64,000 nucleotides of DNA, taken from positions 5,146,001 to 5,210,000 of the forward strand of contig CDPCPM010000196.1 of NCBI GenBank assembly GCA_976551045.1, written 5' to 3'. Shown here one piece after another: positions 2,717-45,373 of this stretch; position 1 is the first letter of the stretch, and each line of letters starts with the position of its first letter. The position numbers and the translations under genes are program-made. The notes beneath the pieces were generated by a model. The model searched no databases. It saw only the letters and a list, made by a program, of their open reading frames with translations, and was not told where the DNA came from. This DNA comes from Glaucostegus cemiculus (taxonomy: Eukaryota).

Positions 2717-4688
2717 ATGGAAAAGCCGGTACTAATTCAGACAGAACTTATTTACTACCCTATCCTTGCCACAGTCAGCGTACCTGGTGAGCCTCCTATT
2801 ATTTTCTGTCAAAGTTTCACTGTGTAGCTTCTAATTTTAAATGTATTTCTGCTATTTGCATTAAGTTTGATTGACACATACGAATGACTGGTTTTGAAAT
2901 CTAACCGACGTACACCGAAGTAAAATGACTTCGACAGTGTTGAAAGACAACAACAATTAACCTGACATGACTCAGTATTTTGGGCGCCAGTAACGGCTGC
3001 AATGGCAGGTCGTGCCTCAGCGAGAAGTGCCAAAGCGGATAGATGAGCTAAATTAGATGTCCATGGGATTGAGGAGGCTGAGAAGGGCAAGGAATTTTAA
3101 CTTTACAATAATTTCGGCTACTCGGGAGAAACGGAAGAGCGGCTGCTACTCCACTAAAATGTCCTAGGTAACTGAAGGACAGCAGGTCACCCACAGAGTT
3201 AACGAACTGCGCGCAGATCCTCAGCCGTATGATATATAAGATTAATTGGAATTATATCCGCATGTTGAATTAAATCTGGGGATTCCTTTCAAATTTTAAG
3301 GATGGTCAAATTTTCAAAAAATATTCATCGTATTTCAACTGGCGCACACTTCTTAAGGTTCTCGCATGAAAGCTGATGCGCATTTCTTACTATGAAGTGA
3401 CAGGAAGTTGAACAATAAGATATGACGCTTGAGACTGATTAGCGTAGCAGCCTCTATGCTTAACAGTCGACATTCCGCTCTATTCAAGTGAATGGTGCCT
3501 GATTTGATTGAGCTGTGAGACTTCCATACCACCGATAGTTGCTCCATTCGAATGTTCCGGCCTCGTTTAGCCATGCACTGTAGGATTTTGTTCATCACTA
3601 TTTCCGACAAGAAACAATACAGCTTGTCTTACAGAATCATGCGCACCTCGTCAGTACGAGGAAAAGAAGTCTGGTTCGGAGTCAAATAATCCACTTAATT
3701 TCATGCGACGAGCAGCCAGCACACCTCGTTGCAAGACCAATTAATGGTGGTAAATAATAACATATATCTTTTTTACCTGCAGCAAATTTCTTAGCCATCG
3801 TCATTCTGTTCCGTGGAAAATGTGGGCTCTCCAAATGCATCACCATTATATGGTGTCCATGGCCATAACTGATTTACTGGTTCTGGTGTTTCAGATAATT
3901 CTGTATGAGTTTAAGGATGGCTATTTCCCTGATTCGTTCCAGAATATAACTCCAGTTTGTAGTCTGCACCATGCCCTCATTCTTTTCTCCATGCATTGCT
4001 CTGTGTGGCTAACGGTGGCCTTCACCTTCGATCGATACATCACCATTTGTTGTCATAACCTATGGTCACAATACTGCACAGAAAAAACTGCGATTCGGGT
4101 GATATCAGTGGTTCTTGCCATAAGTATTTTCGAAAATATCCCAGTTTATTTCTCTTCATGCCTTGGAAAATAATTGACAACGTAGCTTGGTACTGTATTC
4201 TGAAATCGGAATTCTACACCTCACCTCTGTGGGTCACATTTTGGTGGTTTGAAACTATTTGTATCCCATTTGCACCATTTCTGCTGATCATGCTGCTCAA
4301 TAGTCTGACAATTAAGCATATACAAGCCAACAGAGTGCGGAGCGGACTCCGAGGGAGCAAGAATAATGAGAGTTCCACAGATAAAGAGGTGGAGAACCGG
4401 AGGAAGTCAATCATTCTATTACTCGCTGTATCTGGCAGCTTCCTCCTACTGTGGACGGTAAATTTCGCGAGCTACATTACTGTACAGTTCGCAGATGCTC
4501 CGTCTTTTGATACAAACTACAACGAACCATTTACCATTGCAAACGAAACAGGATATATGCTGAGGTGTTTGAGTACTTGCACGAACACGTTTATTTACGC
4601 GGTGTTTCAGACAAAATTCAGGGAGGAATTAAAACATATGATTTCGAGCCCTTTCCTTTGCTTGAATAATTCCATAAAGATCTTCTAA
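2717..4688 (+). pseudogene. GPR139/GPR142-like class A GPCR pseudogene, copy A; exon 1 2717-2786, exon 2 3783-4688
   Basis: Exon 1 MEKPVLIQTELIYYPILATVSVP + G|GTGAG donor; acceptor ttttacctgcAG; exon 2 ANFLAIVILFRGKCGLSKCIT, TM2 MAITDLLVL, FTFDRYITIC, ENRRKSIILL, TM7 CTNTFIYAVFQTKFREEL; two -1 frameshifts (~3843, ~4150); repaired length 325 aa. Confidence 0.9.
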
Positions 4689-6577: not shown

Positions 6578-8333
6578 CTACATTGTATGAAAGTATTGAA
6601 TAAATGGACTCCAAACATCTTCAAATTTAAGCGAAGAATCAACAGTACCACTCCTAATTTTTTCCAAATTAAGACATGAAATAGTTTGAGAGAACCATTG
6701 AAAAGTGGTAGGGGGTATTGGATCCTTCCATTTGAGCAGGATTGCTCGTTTGGCCATCAATGTAACAAAAACAATCATACGATTAGCAGAAGCAGGTAAA
6801 TGGCCAGACTTTATCCATGGTAATCCAAAAATTGCAGTAATAGGGTAAGGTTGTAAAACGTTCTTCAATACATCTGAAATAATATTAAAAATGTCTTTCC
6901 AATATTTTTCCAAATTAGGACAAGACCAGAACATATGTGACAAAGAAGCCACGTTTGATTTACATCTGTCACATATAGGGTTTATACGATCATAAAAACG
7001 AGCTAGCTTATCTTTGGACATATAGGCCCTGTGCACAACTTTAAACTGTATCAATGAATGTCTGGCACACATTGAGGATGTATTAACTAAATGAAGAATT
7101 TTCTTCCAAGTCTCTATAGATATAGAAATCTGCAGTTCAATTTCCCAATCATTTTTAATTTTGTCCAGTGAATCTGCTGGTATTTTCATAATTAAATCAT
7201 AAATTATTGCTGTCAAGCCCTTCTGATGAGGATTAAAACCTAAAATTTTATCAATAATTTCATCTTTATAAAGAAATGGAAAGGAAGGTATAGTAGCTTT
7301 TAAAAAATTTCTAATCTGCAAATATCGAAAAAAATGTGATCTAGGTAAATTATATTTATTAGACAGCTGTTCAAAAGATGCAAAACAGTTATCAATGAAT
7401 AGATCACAAAAGCATACTATTCCCTTCCTTTTCCAAAAAGAAAAAGCTGTATCTAGTCTAGATGGTTGAAAAAAAAAATTAGATTGTATAGGACTTGACA
7501 AAACAAATTTAGTCAATCCAAAGAATTTACGAAATTGAAACCATATTCGTAATGTATGTTTAATGATTGGGTTAGTCATATATTTACTTAATTTGGTAAG
7601 TGCAAAAGGAAGTGAAGCTCCTAAAATAGAGAATAACGAAAATTCAAATGTTGATTGATACTCAAGATGTACCCATTTAGGGCATTGAATAACATTTAAG
7701 TCTTGTGTCCAAAAAATTAAATATCTGATATTGATTGCCCAATAATATAATCTAAAATTAGGCAAGGCCATACCACCATCCTTTTTCAGTTTTTGTAAAC
7801 ATTTCTTACTTAGTCTTGGATTCTTGTTCTGCCAAATATATGAAAGAATTTTAGAATCAACCTTGTCAAAAAAAGACTTTGGGATAAAAATTGGAATCGC
7901 TTGAAATAAATATAAAAATTTTGGTAAGATATTCATCTTAATTGCATTAATTCGGCCTATCAGTGATAAAGACATTGGAGACCATTTAGTAAGCGATTGT
8001 TTAACTTGGTCAAATAAAGGTAAAAAATTAGCTTTAAATAAATCCTTATGTTTATTAGTAATTTTAACACCTAAATACATAAAATAATCAGTTACCAATT
8101 TAAAGGGTAACTGGCTATAAATTGAGGTTTTCATATTCAGTGGAAAAAGTTCAGTCTTATTAAAATTTAGTCGATAACCAGAAAAAACACTGAATTGATC
8201 TAATAATAATAGTACTGCAGGGATCGATTCGTCTGGATTAGAAAGATAAAGTAATAAGTCATCTGCATAAAGAGATATCTTATGAGTATTCTGTCCACGA
8301 ATAATACCATGTATATTTAAAGAGTCTCGGATT
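6578..8333 (-). pseudogene. L1 ORF2 C-terminal part (RT YADD at 8258-8269 through the cysteine-rich CCHC domain)
   Basis: HKISLYADDLLLYL…SGYRLNFNKT…YLGV…GRINAIKMNILPKFLYLFQ…GGMALPNF…CDRC-x8-HMFWSC. Confidence 0.92.
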
Positions 8334-9170
8334 TGTTACGAAACCAGCAACAAAAGAAGCACACCAAGTCATACTTCAGTGTTAAATCTACTTTATTAAT
8401 AACTATATCCGATAATACGTAAAATAAGAATAAAAAGTTAGTATATTAGTACACAATAAAATGTTAGAATCTTAACCCCAAAACTATAACCTCAAAACTA
8501 CTCGTCGTGTATGTGCGGCAAGTTCCTAAACTCCAAGTCCAGGAATTAGGTCTTAAAGTCAGTTCAGTAAGCCGTAAGATGACACGAATAAAGGCTTCTT
8601 CACAAGCACTGTCCACCGAAGACAAAATATAGATATAGAGAGAGATTAGAGAGGAATCACGAAATCCAAATGTTCCACTCGAAACTCAAACGACACTTCA
8701 GGGCTTACTCAGTAGTGACTTTCTCACCCTGAAAACTCCTTGAATGTTGACTGTCCATGCAAATACCTGTGTTCTTCTACAGGTTAGCAGCAAAGTGAAT
8801 TCCGTCACTTTGTTCCACAGTATCTGCCACTCTGAAGAGCATCCAAAATGTGGTTGTTCACGCAAACACCTGTGTCCTTCTACAGGTTACCGACAAAGTG
8901 AACTCCACTGGACTACTCCAGAAATCTATCCACGGATTTTAGTGACAAACACAGTTACGGTCCTTCATCCATCGACAGAAACAAAACAAGCTGCCATCTC
9001 GCCTTCTTCTCTCTTTCCATCTGTCTGTCTGTCTCTCTCTCTCTTATCTTTTTTCTTTCTTGCAATGACCTCATCACGTTAGTCCCATCTTCTGTTGACG
9101 TAATACGTTACACACACACACAATGTCCCATCTAAAAGGGATATTTGCCTAAGTAAGCTACTTCGTAACA
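8334..9170 (-). repeat. Gypsy 3' LTR
   Basis: Direct repeat of 13299-14135; TG…CA ends; preceded on the minus strand by a purine-rich tract GTGTGGGAGG (9171-9180). Confidence 0.95.
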
Positions 9171-9295
9171 CCTCCCACACAAACAGAATTTTTTTTTCAA
9201 AAAAATTATTACCCGCGCATATAGTTAGTGATGTTAGTAATTATCATTCTACATACTAACAGTATATCAGATTAGTAACAATATAGGTCTTTCGT

Positions 9296-12241
9296 TTAAC
9301 ATCGAGAAAGGCAATCAGCAATTACATTATCTTTGCCTTTATTGTGAATTATCGTGAGATCAAATTCTTGCAGAATTAAACTCCAGTTTAACAGCCGTCT
9401 GTTTTTGTTTTTCACTCGGCTCAGAAACACTAACGGATTATGATCTGTGTATATAATCAACGGTTTCTGAGTTGGGCAAACATACACATTGAAATGTTGT
9501 AAGGCTAAAACAAGTGAAAGCAATTCTTTCTCTATCGTAGAGTAATTTTTCTGATGCTCATTAAACTTCTTTGAAAAGTAAGCTACAGGGTGGTCAATCT
9601 CATCAAGGTCACTCTTCTGCAACAACACAGCTCCTGCAGCTTCATCACTGGCATCCACTGCTAATGAAAATGGCTTTTCAAAGTCAGGTGACTTGAGCAC
9701 AGGATAGTAACACAAAATGGTTTTTAGCTTCTCAAATGCTTCTTGACAAGAATCTGTCCAAACAAATTTCACTCCTTTCTTCAGAAGATTAGTTAAGGGA
9801 AGAGCAATATCAGCAAAATTTTTACAAAATTTCCGATAATATCCAACCATTCCCAGAAATCTTCTAACAGTCCTGATGCCTGTAGGAACAGGGAATTCAG
9901 ATATCACTTGAACTTTTGCCTGAACAGGTGCTAACTTGCCTTGACCTACAACATAACCAAGATATGTCACAGTGGCATGGCCAAATTCACTTTTAGCCAA
10001 ATTGACTGTAAGGTTAGCTTTGGAAAGTCTTTCAAACAACCTTTCTAATGCAATGATGTGATCCTCCCATGTATCATTCCCTGTCACTAGATCATCAATG
10101 TAGGCATCTGTATGTTTTAACCCATGAATCACTGAATTGATTATTCTTTGAAATGTTGCTGGGGCATTTTTCATTCCAAATGGCAAAACATTGTATTCAT
10201 ACAATCCAGAAGGGGTTGCAAAGGCAGAAATCTCCCTTCCTCTCTCTGTTAATGGAACACACCAGTACCCTTTTAGTAAATCAATCTTTGTAAGAAATTT
10301 GGCCGTCCCCACTCTATCTATGCAATCATCTACCCTTGGAATGGGGTATGCATCCGACTTTGTCACAGCATTCACTTTTCTGTAATCTGTACAAAATCTA
10401 ATGGTCCCATCAGGTTTTGGCACAATTACACAGGGCGAACTCCAGTTTGAACTGGAACGTCTGATGATGTCATTTTCTAACATATACTCAATTTCCTGAT
10501 CAACAAGTTTACTTTTATCCACATTCATTCGATATGGCTGTTGTTTGATTGGTTTTGCATCCTCAACGTCAACATCATGGGTAATTATTGACGTTCTGTT
10601 TGGCACATTGGGAAAAAGATTTTTAAATTTTAAAAGTAACTGTTTCATCTGCTGTTTCTGTGAATCTTGTAAATGGTCCAACTTTGTCTCAAGGTTCTCC
10701 AAGATATTTTGGTTTTCTAGCCTTGCTGAAATAATATTTGGTCTACATTGGCCTCCCTCATTGTCAACAACAGATGTCTCAGGGACATTCCTCACGCACT
10801 GATTCCCAACTTCAGACTTTGGCAATGGTCCAACACAATCCAAAATCACCTTTGAAAAGCGTTCACCAAAATCAGGAATGGGTTTCAGAGGAGCCACAGG
10901 GGGTTTTTGATTTGGTTTACCTACCATCTGACATGTATGACAGGTTCGACAGAACATCACCACATCTTTTCTCAAACCAGGCCAATAGAATTGTTTCAAG
11001 ATCTTCCCCACAGTTTTATTCACCCCTAAATGACCACCTAAAGGCATGCTATGGGCCAGGTTTAAAATCTCATCCCGATAAACTTTAGGAACTACTACCT
11101 GATGAATAACTTCCCACTCCTCATTCACAGGGACATGAGGCGGTCTCCATTTCCTCATTAACAATCCATCCTTGACATAATATCCAACTGGCACTTTTTC
11201 AATTTCCTCACTTGAGAGTGCTTTTTCCTTCAGTTCAGTCAGTTCAGGGTCTTTATTCTGTTCCACCATAAATTCTTTCCTTGACAAAGACAAATCTTTG
11301 TATTCAGGCCCACTACCAAAACTTTGATCCTCCAGTGAAGACAGAAAAGTGTCAGACAAATCATCATAATTTTCCTCTTGTTTAGGACTATCACAAGGAA
11401 CAATTTCAGACTGTGTAGAATTCTCGGCCTTAGCTAATTCTTTAGCTTTAGCTCGGGTTACTGCACAAGATGGATAAATGTCTGCGTCATTCTCAGATTC
11501 AGTAAAGCTTGGTTTAGTTGTTAACTGTACCACAGAAACAAATTCTTCACCTGCAAGGTCATTTCCCAATAACAAAGAAACACCCTCCACTGGTAAACTT
11601 GGTCGTATCCCTATCTCAACAGGTCCTTCCACGAACTTTGATTTTAAAATCACCTTGTGCAAAGGCACGAACATGGTATCACCTGTAACACCTCGCACTA
11701 GATTTACCTCACCAGTTTCAGTTTCCTTACCAAAATTTAAAACACTGTCCAGCAAGAGAGATTGGGAAGCTCCAGTATCTCTAAGGATTTTCACTGGTAC
11801 CTGGGGTGACCCATCCTTCAGTGAAACAAAACCTTCTGATACATATGAACGGAATTCCTCCCTCACCTCATCCAGCTTTTCAGTCTTCATCTCTAGCAAG
11901 GACTGATCTTTCACAACCTCCCCTAAACCTCTTCTACTTTCGGGTTTAATAACTTGACAACAGGCAGTTGGCACAGCTCCCTTTTCATGCTTTTTCTTCA
12001 AAACAGAACAGTCAAATTTCATATGGCCAGGCTTCTTACAGTAATAACAAAGACGCTCAGCAGGTTTCTCCAGCACTGGCTTCTTGTCATCCTTCCCTTT
12101 TGGATTATCTCCCAATTTAATCTCTGGTTTACCTGGATTGTCTCTGTAACTCCTTTGAAAGGTTTTAGGTTGTCCCCATCTGTATTTATGGGTTAAAGCA
12201 TAATCATCTGCCAACCTAGCAGTTTCTTGTAAAGTGTCCAC
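9296..12241 (-). CDS. pol: Gypsy gag-pol polyprotein part: zinc knuckle, protease, truncated integrase, RT, RNase H (981-aa open frame)
   Basis: CYYCKKPGHMKFDC; LRDTGAS (DTG at 11771-11779); AHSMPLGGH…CRTCHTC and VILDCVGPLP; KIDLLKGYW, LPFGMKNAP, YIDD (10091-10102); DASD…EKELL…TDH…NVIADCLSR. Confidence 0.93.
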   Translation of the reverse strand: MDTLQETARLADDYALTHKYRWGQPKTFQRSYRDNPGKPEIKLGDNPKGKDDKKPVLEKPAERLCYYCKKPGHMKFDCSVLKKKHEKGAVPTACCQVIKPESRRGLGEVVKDQSLLEMKTEKLDEVREEFRSYVSEGFVSLKDGSPQVPVKILRDTGASQSLLLDSVLNFGKETETGEVNLVRGVTGDTMFVPLHKVILKSKFVEGPVEIGIRPSLPVEGVSLLLGNDLAGEEFVSVVQLTTKPSFTESENDADIYPSCAVTRAKAKELAKAENSTQSEIVPCDSPKQEENYDDLSDTFLSSLEDQSFGSGPEYKDLSLSRKEFMVEQNKDPELTELKEKALSSEEIEKVPVGYYVKDGLLMRKWRPPHVPVNEEWEVIHQVVVPKVYRDEILNLAHSMPLGGHLGVNKTVGKILKQFYWPGLRKDVVMFCRTCHTCQMVGKPNQKPPVAPLKPIPDFGERFSKVILDCVGPLPKSEVGNQCVRNVPETSVVDNEGGQCRPNIISARLENQNILENLETKLDHLQDSQKQQMKQLLLKFKNLFPNVPNRTSIITHDVDVEDAKPIKQQPYRMNVDKSKLVDQEIEYMLENDIIRRSSSNWSSPCVIVPKPDGTIRFCTDYRKVNAVTKSDAYPIPRVDDCIDRVGTAKFLTKIDLLKGYWCVPLTERGREISAFATPSGLYEYNVLPFGMKNAPATFQRIINSVIHGLKHTDAYIDDLVTGNDTWEDHIIALERLFERLSKANLTVNLAKSEFGHATVTYLGYVVGQGKLAPVQAKVQVISEFPVPTGIRTVRRFLGMVGYYRKFCKNFADIALPLTNLLKKGVKFVWTDSCQEAFEKLKTILCYYPVLKSPDFEKPFSLAVDASDEAAGAVLLQKSDLDEIDHPVAYFSKKFNEHQKNYSTIEKELLSLVLALQHFNVYVCPTQKPLIIYTDHNPLVFLSRVKNKNRRLLNWSLILQEFDLTIIHNKGKDNVIADCLSRC

Positions 12242-13153
12242 ATTCTTTTCATTTAGGTATGCAGCATTTCAGCTGGTACACATCTTTTAAAGTCTTCTAT
12301 TAAAACTAATTCTGTCAATTTCTTATAATCATCAACTACATCTTTCGCCATACACCATCGTTCAAAACATATTCTCTTTCCATTGGCAAACTCCATGTAT
12401 GTTTGATCTGAAGTTTTCTTCAAGTCTCTAAACTTTTGTCTGTACGCTTCTGGTACCAACTCATACACTTTCAAGATTGCTTGTTTTACTTTTTCATAAT
12501 CAGCTGCCTCCTCCACAGACAAAGCAGAATAAGCTTTTTGAGCTTTGCCTTTAATCACACTCTGTAACATAAGAGCCCATCTCCTTTTTGGCCAATTTAA
12601 ACTCGTAGCAACCTTTTCAAAATGTTGGAAATACTGTTCAACCTGATCTTCATCAAAAGGAGGGACTAATCTAACCTCCCTACTGGCTGAAAACTCATCA
12701 TCAGAATCAGAATCTGAACTCTTTCTCTGCATTCTTAACTGATGTTTCCTTTGTTCCTCCCTCTCTTTATTTTCCAGCTCCATCCTCCTCAATTCCAACC
12801 TCTTTTTCCTCTGCCTGAGCTTCAAATTTCAATCGGTCCCTTTCTAACTCAGCATCTATCTTTCTTTGTTCCCTTTCAGCCTCTATCTTTGCTAACTGAA
12901 TTTGGGCATCAGAAATCGCTTGTTCACTGCCAGGAAATTGTTTTACTACTCCCTCTTCAAACACTTGCATCTTCACATAATGACCAGCCATTATTTTCTG
13001 GATATCTGCTTTTCTCATAGATTGTGTTACTGTCGTAAGTTTTAGCTCTGTAGCAAGAATTAATAATTCAGACTTCTTCATTCTCTGCAATCCACTTGGG
13101 GTGGGTTTTTTCATAAACACCTCCATTGCTACTGGTTTCCACACACACGCCAA
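12242..13153 (-). pseudogene. gag: Gypsy gag N-terminal/capsid (SCAN-related) region with two compensating frameshifts
   Basis: LVPPFDEDQVEQYFQHFEKVA…WPKRRWALMLQ…YELVPEAYRQKFR; +1 slip at ~12805 and -1 at ~12263; start 13153 is in frame with 12241. Confidence 0.88.
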
Positions 13154-13276
13154 TTAAGAAAATGTATTGGACCAACCCCAATGTCCAAACTCAGACCTCC
13201 AGTACCAGTCTTAAGTTTGACTGCAAACCAAATCTTTGGACTGGATCCCAGAACGACACTCATTAATCTTGGGAAG

Positions 13277-13294
13277 ATCGCGGACGAGCCCCCA
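13277..13294 (-). promoter_or_regulatory. Primer-binding site, tRNA-Pro type
   Basis: Minus strand TGGGGGCTCGTCCGCGAT, 4 nt after the 5' LTR; 17/18 match to the canonical tRNA-Pro PBS TGGGGGCTCGTCCGGGAT. Confidence 0.9.
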
Positions 13295-13298
13295 ATTT

Positions 13299-14135
13299 TG
13301 TTACGAAACCAGCAACAAAAGAAGCACACCAAGTCATACTTCAGTGTTAAATCTACTTTATTAATAACTATATCCGATAATACGTAAAATAAGAATAAAA
13401 AGTTAGTATATTAGTACACAATAAAATGTTAGAATCTTAACCCCAAAACTATAACCTCAAAACTACTCGTCGTGTATGTGCGGCAAGTTCCTAAACTCCA
13501 AGTCCAGGAATTAGGTCTTAAAGTCAGTTCAGTAAGCCGTAAGATGACACGAATAAAGGCTTCTTCACAAGCACTGTCCACCGAAGACAAAATATAGATA
13601 TAGAGAGAGATTAGAGAGGAATCACGAAATCCAAATGTTCCACTCGAAACTCAAACGACACTTCAGGGCTTACTCAGTAGTGACTTTCTCACCCTGAAAA
13701 CTCCTTGAATGTTGACTGTCCATGCAAATACCTGTGTTCTTCTACAGGTTAGCAGCAAAGTGAATTCCGTCACTTTGTTACACAGTATCTGCCACTCTGA
13801 AGAGCATCCAAAATGTGGTTGTTCACGCAAACACCTGTGTCCTTCTACAGGTTACCGACAAAGTGAACTCCACTGGACTACTCCAGAAATCTATCCACGG
13901 ATTTTAGTGACAAACACAGTTACGGTCCTTCATCCATCGACAGAAACAAAACAAGCTGCCATCTCGCCTTCTTCTCTCTTTCCATCTGTCTGTCTGTCTC
14001 TCTCTCTCTTATCTTTTTTCTTTCTTGCAATGACCTCATCACGTTAGTCCCATCTTCTGTTGACGTAATACGTTACACACACACACAATGTCCCATCTAA
14101 AAGGGATATTTGCCTAAGTAAGCTACTTCGTAACA
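13299..14135 (-). repeat. Gypsy 5' LTR
   Basis: Direct repeat of 8334-9170, offset 4965; only one substitution spotted by eye (8815 C vs 13780 A). Confidence 0.95.
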
Positions 14136-16167
14136 GATTGCAATAGCCAAAGGTTCTAAAGCAATATCGAATAATAAGGGGCTTAACGGACAACCGTGCC
14201 TAGTACCTCGAAAGAGCCTAAAAGAAGAAGATCTTTGATTATTAGTGAATACTGAAGCCATTGGTGTATAATAAATCATTTTAATCATTTAGGGCTGAAA
14301 TTAAATTTTTGAAGTGTAGTGAATAAATAATCCCATTCAACTCTGTCAAATGCTTTTTCAGCGTCTAGGGAAACAACACATTCTGGAATTTGAGATGAAG
14401 GAGTATATATAATATTCATTAATCTCCTAATATTAAAATGTAAATAACGATTCTGGATAAATACTGTCTGATCTTCAGAAATGATTTGTGGAAGAACTTT
14501 TTCCAGCCTAAGGGCCAGTAGTTTGGAAAATATTTTGAAATCTACATTTAATAAAGAGATGGGCCTGTACGATGCACAATCAGTGGGATCTTTATCCTTT
14601 TTAAGAATTAAAGAAATAGTTGCTTCATAAAAAGATTGTGGTAACTTGCCCACTGATAAAGCATCTTTAAAAATTTTGACTAACCAGGGAACAAGAATAT
14701 CCGAAAAAGTTTTAAAAATTCAACTGTATATCCATCAGGACCTGGTGCTTTACCCGATTTCATTGAAAATATCACTTTCCTTATTTCTTCTTCTAACATG
14801 GGAGCATCTAATAGAGAATGATCATTTAAAGAAAGTTGAGGAATCTTCAAACCTCTTAAAAATTCACACATTAATGTGGGATCATCAGACGATTCTGATT
14901 GATATAAAGAAGAATAAAATTCCTGAAAAGATTTATTAATTTGAACAGGATCTATCGTATAGGTACCGTCTGGTTTACGAATTTTATTAATTTGACGTTT
15001 AGATAGAGTGGCTTTCAATTGATTGGCCAATAATTTACCAGACTTATCGCCATGTATATAAAATTGACTTTTATTTTTAAGCAGTAGATTTTCAACTGAA
15101 GATGTTAATAATAAATTATGTTGTAATTGAAGCTCTGTTCTCTTCTTAAAAAGCTCAAAGTTTGAAGTATCAGAATATTTTTTTTATCAATTTCTTTAAT
15201 CTCATCAGTCAAAGTACGTATTTCATTACTCGTTCGTTTTTTTCAATCCAGCGGAATATGATATAATTTGACCACGGATATATGCTTTAAAGGTATCCCA
15301 TATTGTCCCACTAGATAATTCTTCAGTAAAATTAGTTAAAAAGAAAAATGAAATTTGTTCTTTAATAAAATGGAGAAAATCTGAGTCTTGTAATAAGGAA
15401 GGGTTGAATCGCCATTGTCTAACATCAGAGGATACAGCTGGTAATTTAATTGATAAGATCAATGGTGCATGATCAGATATAGTAATTGCATCAAATTTAC
15501 AATCCATAATAAGTGGAGCTAAACTAGTGTCAATAAAAAAATAATCAATCCTCGAATAGTTATGGTAGACATGAGAAAAAAATGAAAATTCTTTATCACA
15601 TGGATGTAAAAACCTCCAAACATCCAAAAATCCAGATTCAACTAGAAAGGAATTAATAAAAACAGCAGATTTGTTTGGAAGTGCAGGTTTTGACACAGAT
15701 TTATCCATCGAGGGGTTTAAACAACAGTTAAAGTCTCCACCCATAATCACAGTATATTCATTTAAATTAGGAAAAAATGCAAACAAATGTTTAAAAAAAT
15801 CCGGATGATCTACATTGGGTGCGTAAACATTTACCATAACAACTTTTTTGTTATGAAGCAAACCAGCAATTAATAAAAATCTACCATTTGGATCAGAAAT
15901 CGTTTCATGATGAACAAACGAAATTGAAGAATCTATAAAAATAGAGACTCCTTTCACCTTTGCTTGTGAGTTAGAATGAAACTGCTGACCCCTCCAAAAT
16001 CTAAAAAATCGTTGATTATCTTCCTTCCTAATGTGAGACTCCTGAACAAAAATAATTTGAGCATTTAATCTCTGGAAAACCTTAAAAATTTTCCTTCGTT
16101 TAATTGGGTGATTCAGCCCGTTAACGTTCCAGGAAATAAAATTAATAGTCTTATCCATTCTCAGCAC
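14136..16167 (-). pseudogene. L1 ORF2 N-terminal part: APE endonuclease and RT domains 0-4, frameshifted
   Basis: SWNVNGLN, VQESH, NVYAPN, GGDFN, SRIDYF, SDHAP; GKAPGPDG; YRPISLLNVD; SLDAEKAFDRVEW; RGTRHGCPLSPLLF; ORF breaks at ~15230, ~15180, ~14690, ~14285. Confidence 0.93.
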
Positions 16168-16719
16168 TTAAAAAAACCCATGGTACGCAAAGGGTTAAAA
16201 ATATGTCCGGGTCTCGACAGCAGGAAGGAAAATGTTCATATAGGAAACGGATATGACGACTGTTTGGAAAAAATTGCAGTTTAGCCCAGAGGAAAAAAAA
16301 GAAAAAAGACATCCCACCCCCCTCCCCCAACAGCCCAAAAACTGACCAATAGACAGCCAGTAAGCTACACTCTAATAGAAACAACCCCATATCTCTTGGT
16401 GGCAGTAGTCCAACAATATTAAAATGTAAAACAACTAGCTATTTTGACTACTCGAAACAAAGGAATGTTAAACAATATTCTAAAATTGGAACAGATCCAA
16501 AGGGCGTTACCAGCCCCTAATTAAAAAATACAGTTTAATAATTGTTTTAAAAAAAAGCAAATAATCAATCATTTGTTAAAATACTTAATTATTACAAACA
16601 AAACATTAAAAAAAAGGAAAAGTATGAATCTAAAACCTAATTAACCAGTAAGAAAAGCACTTAGTATAACATTAAAACAGTGAATTGCCAGCGGATTTCT
16701 TAACAGCCAAAATTAAGAT

Positions 16720-17507
16720 CTAAACTGACAAGAATTTCTCAGCTTCTGCAATTGATTTGAACCACCTGCGTGTTTTATCAGGTAGTATAATTCTGAGCTT
16801 TGCTGGAAATAAAAGAGCAGGATGGTAATTGCTTTGATAAAGACGAGCCATAATTGGTTTATAGGTCATCCTTTCTTTCATAACTTCTGGAGCGTAGTCT
16901 TCAACAATTCGAAACTTCCATTGTTTAAATTGAATCATTCCACGTTTACGAGCGGCACGAATCAGTTGTTCCTTGATACTAACATAGTGAAATCTCAGTA
17001 TTACTGGTCGAGGTTTTTGATCCGGAGCAGGTTTAGATCTTAATGCTCTATCAGCCCTGTCCAGAATCGGCTGGACAGGAAACATTTCAGGACCAAATAT
17101 TTCGACCAAAAGATTAGAGAAGAATTCCGTAGGGTTACCAGTCTCAGTGTTTTCCGGAAAGTTGATGATCCTTAAATTCTTCCTTCTGCTGCGTCCTTCC
17201 AAGTCGGTGATCCTCTGTTGTTGTTTTTCCAGGGTTTGCTTGGTGTATTTAAGGTTATTTCAAGCGAATGAAGTTTGGTATCTCTCTCCTTACCAGCTTG
17301 CTCAAGTTCAGCAATTAATTGTTTCTGTCTGGCGTTCTCTTCGATCAAAATATTCTGCTTCTGTTCGAAATCCCTCAGAATAGACTTCAGTTCGGCAAAG
17401 TTCTGATCAAACTTTTTCTCCAAATTAGAGATAGCTTCCAAAGTAGGCTGGTCTCCATTGTTTTTACCACCTTTACCATTAGCAGAGGCTTTAGATCTGG
17501 TGCTCAT
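16720..17507 (-). pseudogene. L1 ORF1 (coiled coil, RRM, CTD), one frameshift at ~17245
   Basis: Coiled-coil N-terminus; LEGRSRRKNLRI, RPVILRF, LLFPAKLRI motifs of fish L1 ORF1p. Confidence 0.9.
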
Positions 17508-17642
17508 TTTAACAGTTAAAAAAAAACTTACAACAGTATTGTAAAAAAAAAACTTATTAAAGGGTGGTATATAGTGGATTGAAAAGTACCTGGACCAAAG
17601 CCAAGTTGTGGCTCAGTCCATGAGCGCCACCAAGAGACTGCC

Positions 17643-22980: not shown

Positions 22981-23419
22981 GAACTGTCCTTCGGAGTGGG
23001 TTCCAATGTTATCTCTACCAATGTAAGGCTCACCGGCCTGCTGTTTCTGGTTTATCCCTGATTACCTTTTCAATTCAGGAAGCACTACTCTGCAGTTTTC
23101 TGGCGTATCAGCCAAGTCGAACAAAGATGGAACAATTTGCGAGTAAAATGTAGTCAGAATTTTACAAAATCCGCATGTTCCACGATGGAACAGATAAGAC
23201 ACCCTCTATCTCTGAAGATCTCCGCTGCTTTATTCCGAAGTATCTGCCACCCCGAGGGCATTCGATACATGGACGCCCAAGGAAATATCTGCTTTCCAGT
23301 ACAGCTCAACGACTAAGTGACTCCACTTGATTGCTCCAAAAATCCACACATAGATTGCGGTAACAGACACAGCTATTGTTTTACATCCATTGATACAGAG
23401 TCCAGCAGTCAGAGGCCAT

Positions 23420-23553
23420 CTCTTTCTCTCTCACACTCTCTCTCTCTCCTCTCTCTCTCTCGCTCTATCTATCTCTCTCGCTCTCTCTTCGACTTTGTTT
23501 CCAAACAACCAGTACGCTCCAGTCATAGTCTTGCTCTCTTGAAGATTAGACAA

Positions 23554-24012: not shown

Positions 24013-25376
24013 AGTCCACCGATGATGCAGTCTCCTCTGCCATGCACTCTGCACTACATCACTTAGAGAAGAAGGACTCATACTGCCGACTGCTATTCAT
24101 CGACTTCAGCTCCGCTTTCTATACCATCATCCCGCAACAGCTTATCAGGAATTTGAGCGCTCTGGGCATTAAGTCTCCTCTCTGCAACTGGATACTGGAT
24201 TTTCTAACTTGCAGGCAGCAGTCAGTCAAAATTGGTGAAAACACCTCAAGCACCATCACACTGAGCACTGCCTCCCCTCAGGGTTGTGTGCTCAGACCGC
24301 TCCTGTTCACCTTGTTGACCCACGACTGTGAGGCCAGATTCAGCTCCAACCGCACTGTTAAATTTGGCGATGACACGACAGTGGTGTGTCTTGTCACGGA
24401 TGACGATGAGTCGGACTATAGAGAGGAGGTGAACCAACTAGCCGTGTGGTGCCATGACAACAACCTCTCCTTGAATGTGGATAAAACCAAGGCGATGATA
24501 GTGGATTTTAGGAGGGGTCATCGTGTGCACGCCCCGGCTGACCATCAACGGGTCTGCTGTGGAAGAAGTACGCAGCACCAAGTTCCTGGGGGTGCACATC
24601 ACCGACGACCTGACCTGGTCCACTAACATTACGGCCCTCACGAAGAAGGCTCAGAAACGCCTCTACTTCCTGCGGAGACTGAGGAAAGCGTACCCACATC
24701 CCTCAGTCATGAAATCCTTCTACAGGGGGACCATTGAGAGCATCCTAACTCAATGTATCACTGTTTTGTTTGGAAGCTGCTCAGCTGCTGGGCGGAAGTC
24801 CCTCCAGAAGATACTTAGGGCTGCGGAGTGGATCATCGGTGTCTCGCTTCCATCCCTCGCAGACATATACAAAGACCGTTGTGTGAGGAAGACAAAAAGC
24901 ATAATGGCCGACCCTTCTCACCCCTCACACCACCTCTTCACAATTTTGCCATCAGGGAGGAGGCTTAAATGTATCAGGGCAAGAAGGTCCAGGCTGAACA
25001 ATAGCTTCTTTCCGCAAGCCATCAGAACTGCAAACTCTCTCATCCCTCCATCTTCCTTTGATAACAGTAAGAGATGCGAGGTGCACATAAATGCATCAGC
25101 ACTTTAAATGCCCGACACCAGCCCGTTCACTTTAAGAACAATTTATTTATTTACTGGCCATTTTTAATTTAATCTGCGTAATAATTTAATTTCAATCTCC
25201 ATAGCTTCTAATGTGTAATGTTTTGTACTGTGTATTCTGCCAAGTGTGTATGTGTCTCTCTGTTGGTTGTTATGTTATTTTTTTGTGGGACGAGCACCTG
25301 AGGAGGACGGTATCTCGCTGCTATGCATACTATGTGTGTATATGATTGTGACAATGAACTGATTCTGATTCTGATT
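24013..25376 (+). mobile_element. 5'-truncated Rex1/Babar LINE, RT with one frameshift and (GATTCT)n tail
   Basis: STDDA…[23 protein letters not shown]…[11 protein letters not shown]…KFGDDTTVV…[15 protein letters not shown] / [14 protein letters not shown]…KAQKRLYFLRRL…SFFPQAIR; tail gattctgattctgatt. Confidence 0.9.
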
Positions 25377-30097: not shown

Positions 30098-33000
30098 CAA
30101 TGCTCAGTTTTTTTCAGCATTCCTTTGGCAAAGCAATTTTGGTATTTGTTTGCTTTCGTTTCCACAGGTAACCAGTATACTTATACCAGGATGCCGCAGG
30201 GATTTAAGCATTCACCGCATATTTTTAATCAGGTATTGAAGGCAGATTTAGTAGTTATACCATTGGAAAGTACACTGATAAAGTATGTGGATGATTTGTA
30301 GGTTCGCTCTGAAATCGAGGAGCAGTGCGAGCGGGATACTCTGGCTTTGTTAGAAAGATTGGTATGTGGAGGTTATGAAGTATCCAGAATAAAAGCTGCA
30401 GTTTTGTAAACGGCAAGTAGAATATTTGGACAGATTACTATCTAAAGGTGTAAAGTCGATAGCACCGGATCAAGTTGCGTCGATAACTAAGGCTCCTAAA
30501 CCTCACACAGTAGGACAGATGATGACATTTTTGGAAATGGCAGGATACAGTTCAGACTGGTTTGGAGAATATGAAATTGTGACACCTTTGAGGAAAATGA
30601 TGCAGGAAACCGGACATGCAGATTTGAAGAGTGTTTTGCAAAGGAATGACGAGGCAGGAATAGCTTTCAACACCCTTAATCAGAAATTGCAGTCAGCCCC
30701 AGGGCTAGCCTTGCCTGATTATGAGCAGGTTTTTCATCTTCATGTATCGAACAGACAGGAAGATTATGTTGCATCAGTACTGGCGCAAGAGACAGGCATA
30801 GGGAGACTAAACCAGTCAATAGCAATTTAAAATGCGAGACTGGATGAGGTGGCACAGGAAAATCCGCCTTGTTATTAGGGACTGGCAGCATTGCATTTTG
30901 CTTATGAGAAAGCATCGTCTGTGACTATGGACATTTTTGTAAACGCATCATAAGGTAGCAGAATTGTTGGATAAGTGAAAATTTGTACTAACGCCAGCCA
31001 GGATAATTGCATTTCAGATATTTTTAACATTTCCAGATATAACTATACAAAGGTGTAGCACTAGTAATATTGCAGATTATGTTCAAATGGGTTATGAAGG
31101 AGAGCCCCATGAGTGTGTAATGGAGACGATGATATTTGCTTAATTAAGAGCACACTTAGAGTCAAAACCGTTGGAGGATGAAGATAAAAAAAGATTTTGT
31201 TTGTGGATGGCTCTTGCTGCAAGGACCATGGAGGAAACCACACAGAGTTTTCCGTGGTGCAGCAGGGTCAGCCTCAGTTTAAAACGGTTAGACCGGAAGC
31301 TTGTCTGCAACCACGTTCATCCCGGTTAGCAGAGATTAAGGCTCTAACAGCACCATGTGAGATAGAGGTTTAGAAAGTTGATAACGATACAGATTCAGCA
31401 TATGCTCATGGAGTATGTCATTTGTCTGGAGCAGTATGGAAGCAAAGAGATTTTAAGAAAAACAATGGAGATTCTATATCGTATTGTCAGCAAATTTTAG
31501 ATTTGATAACAGCAATGAGGAAACATAGAATGTTGACTATTTTAAAGTGTCAGGCGAAAAAAATGGAAGTGACATGGTGACAAAGGGAAATCAGGCCGCA
31601 GATGAAGCAGCCAGGAAAGCCTCTCGATGTCGTTTGGTTGTTATTGCATCTCAGGTGGGTCTGGGTCCAGAATCCCAAATGGAGAACATAATTGAAATAC
31701 AAGGTAAGGAACAAACAACGTGGAGACAAAGAGGAGCTATGTGAAACCAAGAAGGTCTGTGGAGCACAGATAATGGTTTGTTGGCAACACCTACCTCTTT
31801 GTTGACTACCCTCATTTCAGAGGTACATGGGTTGGATCATTCTGCAAGGGGGAGAGGTTAAACAAATCACAATGGGTGTGGGTATAGCATTGCTTATGTC
31901 TACACTCATTTTATAATGCTTCCTTCCACACTTTAAGTCCCTTCTACTGCGCGCCAAAGTGAAACAGTTTCCGATGCTCCTGGCGATGACTGTGTCAAAC
32001 CCGCAGGGAAGGAAGTCGCAACAACATACTTCTATGATCTGACTCCAGGAAATGTGCTCAATGATGACCACAACACTACAGATGACAACTATGCTTATGT
32101 TAGGGATAATTCTGTGAGGGCCGCAAGGTCCTTTTCCGCGTCTCAGTTACGGAGGGATGGGTTTTTGGACCTCAGGCTCAGGCCATAGAGAGTGGATTCA
32201 TGAGGCCTGGACACAAAAAGTACATTCTACCCATTTTTGGAATGATTGGCTTTAGTATTTGGGTGTCGTGTCCTATCAATTCTTTCTCTATGTCAGACCG
32301 TGGAACGCTCAAGGCGTGGGGGGGGGGGTGGGTGGTGGCGGGATTATATAGAATATGGAGAGTAGAAAATTGAGTCTGTAAACGTGTTTATTCATTAATT
32401 ATTGGGTGTCTAAGATGGCCACTGGTGTTCCTGAGATGGCTGCTGTACTTTTTTGTCAGCCCAAGCGCGTGGAACTCAGTGCAGAGACATAAAGCTCATT
32501 AAACAAATGGACAGTTCAGGAAAACACTTTTGATCTAAGGTAGCTAATTTAAAAGATCGGAAGCACATGTCTAGGAAGAGAGTATTCTGCTTTATTCTGC
32601 AGCTAATGATTTCATAGCAGCTAGTAGTTTTGATAACTAAGAGCTTGGTGCCAACAAGTCTCAGGACTCAGAAGAGATAGTGACACTCTTTTGATGTTTT
32701 ATAAAGAATAGCCTCGTAGCTAAGAAGGTTTAATACTGCTAATAATTGGATTGGAGAATAACTAAGTTTAGAAACTATGTACTCCCAAGATGTTCGCAGG
32801 TAATTGGGGCACCCTGTGTTTGAGTCACGAAATGCCACGGATAGGAGACAAATGGTTAAAGAATGAAGCCACAAAGATAACAGAGAACATGGTGGGTTGT
32901 GAGGATGTGATTGAACTATGAAAGATATATTATCATTAGAAAATTGCCCAGTACCGATTTAAAAACTGCATGTAGTAATTAGACTAAGAAATAACTCTAG

Positions 33001-34239: not shown

Positions 34240-36206
34240 ATGGAAAAGCCGGTACTAATTCAGACAGAACTTATTTACTACCCTATCCTTGCCACAGTCA
34301 GCGTACCTGGTGAGCCTCCTATTATTTTCTGTCAAAGTTTCACTGTGTAGCTTCTAATTTTAAATGTATTTCTGCTATTTGCATTAAGTTTGATTGACAC
34401 ATACGAATGACTGGTTTTGAAATCTAACCGACGTACACCGAAGTAAAATGACTTCGACAGTGTTGAAAGACAACAGCAATTAACCTGACATGACTCAGTA
34501 TTTTGGGCGCCAGTAACGGCTGCAATGGCAGGTCGTGCCTCAGCGAGAAGTGCCAAAGCGGATAGATTAGCTCAATTAGATGTCCATGGGATTGAGGAGG
34601 CTGAGAAGGGCAAGGAATTTTAACTTTATAATAATTTCGGCTAGTCGGGAGAAACGGAAGAGCGGCTGCTACTCCACTAAAATGTCCTAGGTAACTGAAG
34701 GACAGCAGGTCACCCACAGAGTTAACGAACTGCGCGCAGATCCTCAGCCGTATGATATATAAGATTAATTGGAAATATATCCGCATGTTGAATTAAATCT
34801 GGGGATTCCTTTCAAATTTTAAGGATGGTCAAATTTTCAAAAAATATTCACCGTATTTCAACTGGCGCACACTTCTTCAGGTTCTCGCATGAAAGCTGAT
34901 GCGCATTTCTTACTATGAAGTGACAGGAAGTTGAACAATATGATATGACGCTTGAGACTGATTAGCGTAGCAGCCTCTATGCTTAACAGTCGACATTCCG
35001 CTCTATTCAAGTGAATGGTGCCTGATTTGATTGAGCTGTGAGACTTCCATACCACCGATAGTTGCTCCATTCGAATGTTCCGGCCTAGTTTAGCCATGCA
35101 CTGTAGGATTTTGTTCATCACTATTTCTGACAAGAAACAATACAGCTTGTCTTACAGAATCATGCGCACCTCGTCAGTACGAGGAAAAGAAGTCTGGTTC
35201 GGAGTCGAATAATCCACTTAATTTCATGCGAAGAGCAGCCAGCACACCTCTTTGCAAGACCAATTAATGGTGGTAAATAATAACATATATCTTTTTTACC
35301 TGCAGCAAATTTCTTAGCCATCGTCATTCTGTTCCGTGGAAAATGTGGGCTCTCCAAATGCATCACCATTGTATGGTGTCAATGGCCATAACTGATTTAC
35401 TGGTTCTGGTGTTTCAGATAATTCTGTATGAGTTTAAGGATGGCTATTTCCCTAATTCGTTCCTGAATATAACTCCAGTTTGTAGTCTGCACCATGCCCT
35501 CATTCTTTTCTCCATGCATTGCTCTGTGTGGCTAACGGTGGCCTTCACCTTCGATCGATACATCACCATTTGTTGTCATAACCTACGGTCAAAATACTGC
35601 ACAGAAAAAACTGCGATTCGGGTGATATCAGTGGTTCTTGTCATAAGTATTTTCGAAAATATCCCAGTTTATTTCTCTTCATGCCTTGGAAAATAATTGA
35701 CAACGTAGCTTGGTACTGTATTCTGAAATCGGAATTCTACACCTCACCTCTCTGGGTCGCATTTTGGTGGTTTGAAACTATTTGTAGCCCATTTGCACCA
35801 TTTCTGCTGATCATGCTGCTCAATAGTCTGACAATTAAGCATATACAAGCCAACAGAGTGCGGAGCGGACTCCGAGGGAGCAAGAATAATGAGAGTTCCA
35901 TAGATAAAGAGGTGGAGAACCGGAGGAAGTCAATCATAACTCGCTGTATCTGGCAGCTTCCTCCTACTGTGGACGGTAAATTTCGCGAGCTACATTACTG
36001 TACAGTTCGCAGATGCTCCGTCTTTTGATACAAACTACAACGAACCATTTACCATTGCAAACGAAACAGGATATATGCTGAGGTGTTTGAGTACTTGCAC
36101 GAACACGTTTATTTACGCGGTGTTTCAGACAAAATTCAGGGAGGAATTAAAACATATGATTTCGAGCCCTTTCCTTTGCTTGAATAATTCCATAAAGATC
36201 TGCTAA
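34240..36206 (+). pseudogene. GPR139-like GPCR pseudogene, copy B; exon 1 34240-34309, exon 2 35306-36206
   Basis: Same structure and two frameshifts as copy A plus a net 5-bp deletion at ~35937 before TM6. Confidence 0.9.
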
Positions 36207-42200: not shown

Positions 42201-43550
42201 AAAACGAATCCAGGAGATCTTTTGAGCCAGTCGATAGGTAGTCCAACTGATGAAATTGGATTGCTGAACTAATCTTATGGAATGTAGCTGAGTAACTGGT
42301 TCGATTGTCAGTGGGGGAGAATTTCGGTGTCAGTCAGCATACCTGTGTAACATATTGGGCAAATACGCACTTGTTATTAGGTGAGTCCACATCTAACATG
42401 TTTGAGTCTTTTACAGATGTTGTTTTGGATTCATGTCCAGCCTGTTGAAAGAAAGGTGAAAGGCAAGGATGGCAATGTTCATGAACTTTGGATGACGGGA
42501 GATAACTTAGGTTTAGTCAAAAGAAAACTGAAACATTTGTCAGATCAAGGAAACTGAGAATGGCAAAGGTGCCAGAGAAATACAAATGCAGCAGTAAAAC
42601 ATTGAAACAAAAAATGTGGAGAGCGACAGGGGTCATGGAATGCCCTTAGCAAGTGGGAGTTAGTAAAATCTCGATGCAGTTTATTCATATCTAATAAAAT
42701 GGTACCTAGAAAGAGAAAAGGAGGTTCAAACAAGAACATTAGAAAGACATTATACCAGGACAAGTGGGCGCCGTATTTAATGGATATTCAGAAGGAGAAG
42801 GACGTGGATGACAGTGATAGCACGAAGGGTGCGTTGATATTCTCTGGCATGCTTTAGTAGGAAAGAGTATGTGCCGTGTCTCTCAAAAACGTGAAGAACT
42901 ATAGGTCCCCGGGGCCTGATGAGATCTATCCTAAGATAACGAAGGGAGCATTGCTTGAGATTGCTGAGCCTTGGCCAGAACTGTCCTTCGGAGTGGGTTC
43001 CAATGTTATCTCTACCAATGTAAGGCTCACCGGCCTGCTGTTTCTGGTTTATCCCTGATTACCTTTTCAATTCAGGAAGCACTACTCTGCAGTTTTCTGG
43101 CGTATCAGCCAAGTCGAACAAAGATGGAACAATTTGCGAGTAAAATGTAGTCAGAATTTTACAAAATCCGCATGTTCCACGATGGAACAGATAAGACACC
43201 CTCTATCTCTGAAGATCTCCGCTGCTTTATTCCGAAGTATCTGCCACCCCGAGGGCATTCGATACATGGACGCCCAAGGAAATATCTGCTTTCCAGTACA
43301 GCTCAACGACTAAGTGACTCCACTTGATTGCTCCAAAAATCCACACATAGATTGCGGTAACAGACACAGCTATTGTTTTACATCCATTGATACAGAGTCC
43401 AGCAGTCAGAGGCCATCTCTTTCTCTCTCACACTCTCTCTCTCTCCTCTCTCTCTCTCGCTCTATCTATCTCTCTCGCTCTCTCTTCGACTTTGTTTCCA
43501 AACAACCAGTACGCTCCAGTCATAGTCTTGCTCTCTTGAAGATTAGACAA

Positions 43551-44009: not shown

Positions 44010-45373
44010 AGTCCACCGATGATGCAGTCTCCTCTGCCATGCACTCTGCACTACATCACTTAGAGAAGAAGGACTCATACTGCCGACTGCTATTCATCGA
44101 CTTCAGCTCCGCTTTCTATACCATCATCCCGCAACAGCTTATCAGGAATTTGAGCGCTCTGGGCATTAAGTCTCCTCTCTGCAACTGGATACTGGATTTT
44201 CTAACTTGCAGGCAGCAGTCAGTCAAAATTGGTGAAAACACCTCAAGCACCATCACACTGAGCACTGCCTCCCCTCAGGGTTGTGTGCTCAGACCGCTCC
44301 TGTTCACCTTGTTGACCCACGACTGTGAGGCCAGATTCAGCTCCAACCGCACTGTTAAATTTGGCGATGACACGACAGTGGTGTGTCTTGTCACGGATGA
44401 CGATGAGTCGGACTATAGAGAGGAGGTGAACCAACTAGCCGTGTGGTGCCATGACAACAACCTCTCCTTGAATGTGGATAAAACCAAGGCGATGATAGTG
44501 GATTTTAGGAGGGGTCATCGTGTGCACGCCCCGGCTGACCATCAACGGGTCTGCTGTGGAAGAAGTACGCAGCACCAAGTTCCTGGGGGTGCACATCACC
44601 GACGACCTGACCTGGTCCACTAACATTACGGCCCTCACGAAGAAGGCTCAGAAACGCCTCTACTTCCTGCGGAGACTGAGGAAAGCGTACCCACATCCCT
44701 CAGTCATGAAATCCTTCTACAGGGGGACCATTGAGAGCATCCTAACTCAATGTATCACTGTTTTGTTTGGAAGCTGCTCAGCTGCTGGGCGGAAGTCCCT
44801 CCAGAAGATACTTAGGGCTGCGGAGTGGATCATCGGTGTCTCGCTTCCATCCCTCGCAGACATATACAAAGACCGTTGTGTGAGGAAGACAAAAAGCATA
44901 ATGGCCGACCCTTCTCACCCCTCACACCACCTCTTCACAATTTTGCCATCAGGGAGGAGGCTTAAATGTATCAGGGCAAGAAGGTCCAGGCTGAACAATA
45001 GCTTCTTTCCGCAAGCCATCAGAACTGCAAACTCTCTCATCCCTCCATCTTCCTTTGATAACAGTAAGAGATGCGAGGTGCACATAAATGCATCAGCACT
45101 TTAAATGCCCGACACCAGCCCGTTCACTTTAAGAACAATTTATTTATTTACTGGCCATTTTTAATTTAATCTGCGTAATAATTTAATTTCAATCTCCATA
45201 GCTTCTAATGTGTAATGTTTTGTACTGTGTATTCTGCCAAGTGTGTATGTGTCTCTCTGTTGGTTGTTATGTTATTTTTTTGTGGGACGAGCACCTGAGG
45301 AGGACGGTATCTCGCTGCTATGCATACTATGTGTGTATATGATTGTGACAATGAACTGATTCTGATTCTGATT
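44010..45373 (+). mobile_element. Rex1/Babar LINE, copy B
   Basis: Translations identical to 24013-25376 at offset 19,997. Confidence 0.9.

Follow-up and report, generated by a model that had tools for sequence, protein, structure and literature searches.

Defective interfering virus genomes are shortened, depend on a helper and rise in frequency. Partial elements that rely on helpers are already known among retrotransposons with long terminal repeats (LTRs), and recombination within a family has been described in Arabidopsis for Onsen, which we take to be a Copia family. In Onsen, intra-family recombination during transposition is pairwise; the abstract deals with one induced burst and does not describe a stable integrase-null allele (PMC5668417). 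The mouse IAP 1-delta-1 form, which belongs to an endogenous retrovirus lineage, carries a 1.9-kb internal deletion that takes part of gag and pol; it is reported to need proteins in trans, to account for most new insertions and to keep a fused open frame that helps in cis (PMC6466679). The wheat element RLG_Sabrina_SA and the TR-GAG elements have partial coding capacity, share the primer-binding site (PBS) and LTR ends with a partner and reach high copy numbers, but they are described as keeping just gag or gag-protease, and Sabrina is almost without homology to its partner (PMC9744471, PMC13570524). Among Gypsy elements, an integrase upstream of the reverse transcriptase (RT) is the Gmr1 arrangement (PMC8220671), and Gmr elements are reported to have a single fused gag-pol open reading frame (ORF) of about 1,500-1,630 aa (PMC11117352). 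Here we describe a Gmr1-type Gypsy element on the minus strand of a 64,000-nt stretch of Glaucostegus cemiculus DNA (assembly GCA_976551045.1, contig CDPCPM010000196.1, positions 5,146,001 to 5,210,000), hereafter the window. We consider it quite likely that the element belongs to the integrase-deleted, in-frame form of a young family, which is present in more than 1,000 copies and inserts through the integrase of intact sister copies. The observations behind this explanation are a common junction, independent target-site duplications (TSDs), the same cis ends, shared single-nucleotide polymorphisms (SNPs) and younger LTRs.

The element resembles the Gmr1 clade in having integrase before RT, one gag-pol ORF and a SCAN-like capsid, and its placement in the clade is by architecture alone. 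It differs in that over half of the counted copies are without the integrase core and C-terminus; the missing complete DDE integrase bears on autonomy and not on membership of the clade. Unlike IAP 1-delta-1, the element has lost integrase alone while retaining gag, protease, RT and RNase H, and its SNP pool is common with the helper. Unlike Sabrina and its partner, the deleted and integrase-bearing forms have 97-98% identity and recombine. The element appears to work like a helper-dependent defective element, and its likeness to defective interfering genomes lies in the shortening, the need for a helper and the rise in frequency; unlike theirs, its record is preserved in the genome of a germline and can be dated.

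A first-pass annotation of the window had noted that the integrase stops just after the first catalytic Asp and that the D,D35E remainder and the C-terminal domain are absent, and this was borne out. Pfam searches found no rve domain in the window frame at E<=0.1 and none in the junction region at E<=1, as that annotation had expected of a profile scan. In P0001, the closest database protein, named from a sawfish and 89% alike over the aligned part, Pfam and the alignment place an rve domain and an integrase C-terminal domain where the window frame has its gap. Measured against family members that still carry integrase, the window element has lost 795 nt (265 codons) comprising the integrase core and C-terminus. 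The join lies at 10800-10801, about 4 nt from the position near 10796 proposed at first.

Genome-wide, the junction has 1,182 exact matches, or 1,573 with three bases left free, and the left edge of the integrase-bearing form has 1,144; these patterns differ slightly in strictness and the counts include duplicated loci. Reversed-pattern controls for both gave 0 matches. A 601-nt query over the junction returned 2,314 candidates, and all 40 scored matches cross the junction ungapped. With the missing stretch of P0001 as query, 147 scored matches without internal stops were obtained. On either side of the gap, nearly all of 30 such partner loci share 97-98% identity with the window element. All 20 partner copies chosen for long frames have one gag-pol ORF of 1,570-1,622 aa and the same PBS, polypurine tract (PPT) and LTR ends, with LTRs 93-95% like those of the window element. 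On this likeness the integrase-bearing copies are members of the same family, and they provide the intact helper candidate that the first-pass annotation had called for.

For comparison, 198 element loci were retrieved in addition to the window copy; removal of eight duplicates and two unmappable loci left 189 copies: 99 integrase-deleted, 48 integrase-bearing, 12 integrase-bearing without RT, 12 without both, 13 out of frame and five other. Random samples (56 deleted and 28 integrase-bearing copies) were drawn from the pattern lists regardless of similarity. Internal deletions were mapped by BLAST, since global alignment placed false blocks inside them. The first catalytic Asp is present in 98 of the 99 deleted copies and the HHCC His and Cys residues are retained in 95-98 of them; the second Asp and the Glu are missing in all 99 and present in 48 of 48 integrase-bearing copies. 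The first-pass annotation had kept a post-insertion deletion as an alternative. Such a single event at the window locus, or an assembly error there, would agree with the two gag frame breaks of the window copy and with nothing else; the more than 1,000 junction matches on many contigs rule the former out, and contigs from a short-read run, possibly of the assembly's own sample, show a variant of the integrase join as well as the join of an RT deletion described below. The chance that either accounts for the deletion is negligible.

An exact 4-bp TSD flanks 66 of the 88 deleted copies with two LTRs, with 44 different 4-mers, and TG...CA ends are found in 82 of the 88. Integrase-bearing copies show an exact TSD in 33 of 40 cases, and the base make-up of their targets does not differ from that of deleted copies (P 0.16-0.55). 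The expectation of several independent insertions sharing one junction thus holds at different sites with different TSDs. Because the TSDs are independent and the targets resemble those of intact copies, the deleted copies are, as far as target sites can tell, ordinary integrase products; together with the missing catalytic residues, this suggests that integrase was supplied in trans. A different view would have the copies multiply at the DNA level, by segmental duplication or gene conversion, or insert by recombination without integrase. Eight of 199 loci are indeed duplicates of one insertion, tandem arrays are present, and PMC13570524 cites mobilisation without integrase in yeast. However, the distinct flanks, the 44 TSDs, the TG...CA ends and the intact-like targets, as well as identical LTR pairs in 13 of 38 copies of the first sample, make this view very improbable.

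The deleted copies are also younger. In the random samples, the median number of LTR mismatches was 2 for the 37 clean copies among 56 deleted ones and 11 for the 16 clean copies among 28 with integrase (P 0.002), and at most five mismatches were found in 28 of 37 and 5 of 16 clean copies, respectively (P 0.002; small samples). When the counts are scaled by this share, there are about three deleted copies per integrase-bearing copy among the young ones, again from small samples. An in-frame internal deletion that makes up most of the new insertions is a feature shared with IAP 1-delta-1. Identical LTR pairs occur in both classes, that is, both were simultaneously active.

Both alleles of 224 of 258 common SNPs were found in both classes. 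The correlation of SNPs with the deletion (r2) is 0.55 within 100 nt of it and 0.02-0.03 farther away. Pairwise difference is 0.0163 among young deleted copies, 0.0143 between these and integrase-bearing copies and 0.0105 among integrase-bearing copies. Since SNPs beyond about 100 nt are common to both classes, the deletion behaves as an allele in a recombining pool and marks neither a clade nor a sub-population of its own. The separate subfamily of the first-pass annotation is therefore not upheld, as deleted copies differ more among themselves than from integrase-bearing ones. Among the features used for partners in PMC9744471, matching PBS and LTR termini, a conserved LTR and simultaneous activity are found here, and an own sub-population is not.

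At the join itself the two classes are distinct. Deleted copies are nearly fixed for seven markers within 72 nt that intact copies rarely carry (r2 0.61-0.94), and the base change next to the join occurs in 0 integrase-bearing right edges. These near-fixed private markers show that the deletion had one origin. If it instead recurred from intact RNA, through splicing or a deletion hotspot, the sharing of SNPs with intact copies everywhere beyond 100 nt would be explained, and the join does show a 2-nt microhomology. Against such recurrence stand the linked markers and the private base change, the lack of GT-AG ends of the removed stretch in any register, and the simple one-step product, which is out of frame and rare; we regard recurrence as highly unlikely. 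A spliced retrocopy was rejected on the missing GT-AG ends and the presence of linked private markers. Read against the partner, the join combines a 793-nt loss at the microhomology (10800-10801) with a base change and, about 12 nt downstream, a loss of 2 nt. The 793-nt loss alone shifts the frame and brings in stops. One older copy (L169) has exactly these two losses and the base change with flanks otherwise of partner type, and another (L144) is without the 2-nt loss. We read the join as a 793-nt step plus a second 2-nt step, though it may also be one complex event. Common variants in the junction stub and linker are 11 nonsynonymous to 2 synonymous, which fits relaxed constraint on an unconstrained core stub and linker and does not demonstrate positive selection on the stub.

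The simplest cause of the SNP sharing would be co-packaging and template switching, in line with the recombination described for Onsen. Deleted RNA would be packaged in particles holding full-length polyprotein and often also full-length RNA, RT would switch templates between the two RNAs, and all but the junction would be exchanged, so that the deletion would persist as a cheater allele. Whether such an allele has taken over in a vertebrate germline, being integrase-null, rescued in frame by secondary mutations, replicated only in mixed particles, more recombined than its helper and responsible for about three of four new insertions, is a tentative proposal to which we give slightly less than an even chance.

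The reading frame is kept in most joins. The out-of-frame join pattern has 19 matches, three of which are point variants of the in-frame join; the remaining 16 compare with 1,573 in-frame matches. In 8 of these 16 (6 independent), deleted-type markers lie upstream and partner sequence downstream, suggesting that the out-of-frame join is remade by recombination without spreading. In-frame joins directly followed by partner sequence number 48, with deleted-type markers upstream in 17 of 30 examined; the 11-nt out-of-frame window has thus given fewer products than the 3-nt in-frame window. A frame of at least 1,230 aa is found in 17 of 56 random deleted copies and one of at least 1,500 aa in 4 of 28 integrase-bearing copies. 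Frames with the RT deletion and frames with a loss of the RNase H tail, both treated below, end near the natural stop, while the out-of-frame join stops about 1.5 kb early. We find it fairly probable that the frame owes its retention to a need for translation to reach nearly to the natural stop, for RNA stability or translation-linked packaging, and, jointly with this, that the encoded RT is of partial help and not essential. As the family makes a single polyprotein, borrowed integrase comes together with RT, and for this reason the own RT would be dispensable. A fused frame acting in cis has its precedent in IAP 1-delta-1.

The first-pass annotation had proposed an element making protease, RT and RNase H for itself. 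In the stronger form of this idea, the deleted form needs these three in cis and borrows integrase alone. The many full frames and the catalytic residues, retained in 91-96 of the 99 deleted copies, speak for it. Singleton variants in deleted copies are near neutral, while private shared variants lean synonymous (nonsynonymous to synonymous, 4:7 in gag-protease, P 0.01; 2:5 in the integrase N-terminus, P 0.003), in RT and RNase H as well. Ty3 integrase domains joined to RT are reported to assist reverse transcription (PMC5371799), which could explain why the HHCC domain is retained. Other evidence speaks against it. RNase H loses its last 14 residues through a 2-nt loss that has 188 genome matches; 10 of the 99 deleted copies have this loss and none of the 48 integrase-bearing copies does. 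Of 30 matches sampled, 28 are deleted copies, which makes 28 of the 29 that were typed (P 0.003 when tested against 0.75). The Asp lost with this tail aligns with the C-terminal Asp of Ty3 RNase H, where D469N is reported to lower activity without abolishing it (PMC5371799), softening the argument. A purging of the tail loss from integrase-bearing copies was rejected, since nearby non-coding variants are equally enriched (e.g. 0.34 vs 0.02).

RT-less forms spread too. An RT/RNase H deletion of 1,351 nt (L258-L277, L178-L196) has 138 matches; of 20 copies sampled, 13 also have the integrase deletion and 6 keep integrase, so the two deletions have recombined. Median LTR mismatches are 2 in RT-keeping deleted copies and 15.5-19.5 in RT-less ones. 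The RT-less double deletions are thus an older wave than the main burst, and this age difference favours the need for own enzymes. The RT-less form that keeps integrase is older, and no full frame of it was found in the 189-copy set. A reciprocal form without gag-protease has only 4 genome matches and gives no support for a two-part complementing pair. Recombination with intact copies would by itself make RT look conserved. We judge a strict need for own protease, RT and RNase H to be rather unlikely; of the original claim, the many open frames and the synonymous lean remain, and the tail loss, the RT-less double deletions and the frameshifted gag of the window copy count against it.

Several observations weigh against the reading of a cheater allele whose frame is kept for translation. 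In RT and RNase H, private variants common to at least four deleted copies have a nonsynonymous to synonymous ratio of 3:5, against 235:67 for singletons (P 0.019), which favours use of the own RT; at three or more copies the ratio is 9:7 (P 0.065). Ty1 is reported to have no cis preference (PMC3945221). The rarity of out-of-frame joins may come from poor template switching across mismatches and not from selection, and the ancestral state may be what some of the in-frame "recombinants" show. Mixing is incomplete, several variants of the 3' untranslated region and the LTR being commoner in deleted copies. Long-range linkage disequilibrium in random copies is lower for deleted copies (about 0.05-0.06) than for integrase-bearing ones (0.16 in the flanks, 0.25 in the core), with or without CpG sites, which supports recombination of the deleted form; the value of the integrase-bearing sample is, however, inflated by its greater age and by the choice of half of its members on protein score. 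Finally, a gag-only derivative (L140, L141, L142, L154) with a larger deletion and an out-of-frame join represents three independent insertions.

The structure of the window element is given in Table 1. The order of zinc knuckle, protease, integrase HHCC domain, RT and RNase H was recognised correctly at the outset, and all lie within one minus-strand frame. This frame stays open through RT and RNase H; it measures 990 aa from stop to stop, and the 981 aa first given start nine codons in. It is no separate gene and lacks a start codon of its own, the family using one gag-pol ORF. Pfam RVT_1 and RT_RNaseH matched the frame and RVT_2 did not, as in Gypsy-type and not Copia-type elements, and the closest solved relative of its RT is Ty3 RT (E 3e-91). 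The protease region gave no match in Pfam. The PBS of the family is presumably that of tRNA-Pro. The stop codon lies about 110 nt from the PPT, and env is absent. The near-identical LTRs (1 mismatch over 837 sites) and the clean TSD were as first described. The gag frame is broken between about 12770 and 12830 and near 12265, the context of the second break being found only in the window copy among the 189. Since the family has one gag-pol ORF, these two breaks leave the window copy unable to make pol, and it is dead. A charged, repeat-like gag segment (about 12770-12900) differs in length between copies: 84 deleted copies show 43 different lengths, most of which keep the frame.

Table 1. Features of the Gmr1-type Gypsy element and its host element, in window positions.
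Feature	Position	Strand	Basis or remark
Gmr1-type Gypsy element	8334-14135	-	LTR pair, TSD, domain order
5' LTR, 837 bp, TG...CA	13299..14135	-	sequence comparison
3' LTR, 837 bp	8334..9170	-	sequence comparison
TSD, left copy, 4 bp	8330..8333	none	
TSD, right copy, 4 bp	14136..14139	none	
PBS, 18 nt	13277..13294	-	one mismatch vs site in other copies
PPT position	9171..9185	-	identical position in integrase-bearing copies
gag N-terminal piece	12767..13153	-	stop after frame break in charged-repeat region
gag capsid piece with SCAN domain	12253..12828	-	SCAN E 5e-8; ends after second frame break
Open frame, 990 aa stop to stop	9296..12268	-	zinc knuckle, protease, integrase N-terminus, junction, RT, RNase H
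CCHC zinc knuckle	12008..12049	-	domain search and alignment
Aspartic protease region, DTGA motif 11768-11779	11555..11836	-	motif reading and alignment to P0001
Integrase HHCC zinc-binding domain, retained	10922..11092	-	Integrase_H2C2 E 1e-19
Integrase core stub incl. first catalytic Asp	10802..10900	-	amino-acid changes typical of deleted copies
Deletion junction, net 795 nt, in frame	10785..10801	-	alignment vs integrase-bearing copies
RT core, YIDD at 10091-10102	9950..10423	-	Pfam and structure-based relatives
RNase H, complete in window copy	9299..9685	-	Pfam and alignment
Host L1-type long interspersed nuclear element (LINE; ORF1, endonuclease, RT in pieces)	6578..17612	-	frameshifted; RT split by Gypsy insertion

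A tandem unit of about 20 kb, with copies 99.7% alike, fills most of the window (17643-64000), and window 1-6132 matches part of this unit at 98%, with the LINE and its nested Gypsy element between. Each unit contains a frameshifted gene for a rhodopsin-family seven-transmembrane receptor (3754-4688 and 35277-36025, plus strand, and the next unit). The unit also contains RT pieces from a different LINE and pieces of RT/RNase H from an older Gypsy element, at 24015-25107 and 44012-45104 (plus strand) and at 30393-30827 (plus strand). Three segments (23228-23461, 43225-43458 and 63212-63446) match the middle of the element's LTR (8808-9043) at about 68% and are perhaps from an older related LTR.

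Elsewhere in the family, one copy (L150) has a near-complete tRNA running on from the PBS (L150 2279-2352) in place of part of the leader and gag; ARAGORN reported the loop "tggg" and did not call the amino acid. A tRNA-type sequence is also present at L341 1500-1573, and a 39-nt motif of it has 40 genome matches. Head-to-tail arrays of elements were found at C59:9319838-9340065 (five units, 5,051-nt period) and C10:22634219-22640877. Short-read runs of two other, related organisms contain a related, abundant family at about 90% identity; none of the joins sought turned up at this place in them, a negative that proves nothing, and contig depth in such runs does not measure copy number.

No integrase-deleted form was found among the best 120 of 1,335 protein matches, in which the junction region was covered to at most 64%. 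In the full-text literature searched, which leaves most subscription journals, Repbase and supplements outside its coverage, no high-copy family that has lost integrase and nothing else was found. Most of the partial LTR elements on record retain gag without the enzymes, and they are handled as clonal subfamilies. In the present family integrase alone has gone, and among the roughly 2,700 copies counted its loss behaves as a segregating allele would; the forms that are out of frame, RT-less or double-deleted serve as natural controls. The co-packaging and recombination rate of LTR element RNAs in a vertebrate germline, a possible cis advantage from translation or from the encoded proteins, and the question whether helper and cheater settle at a stable ratio thus become open to tests on genomes and reads alone. 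In such families, counts based on RT and subfamily clustering misjudge autonomy.

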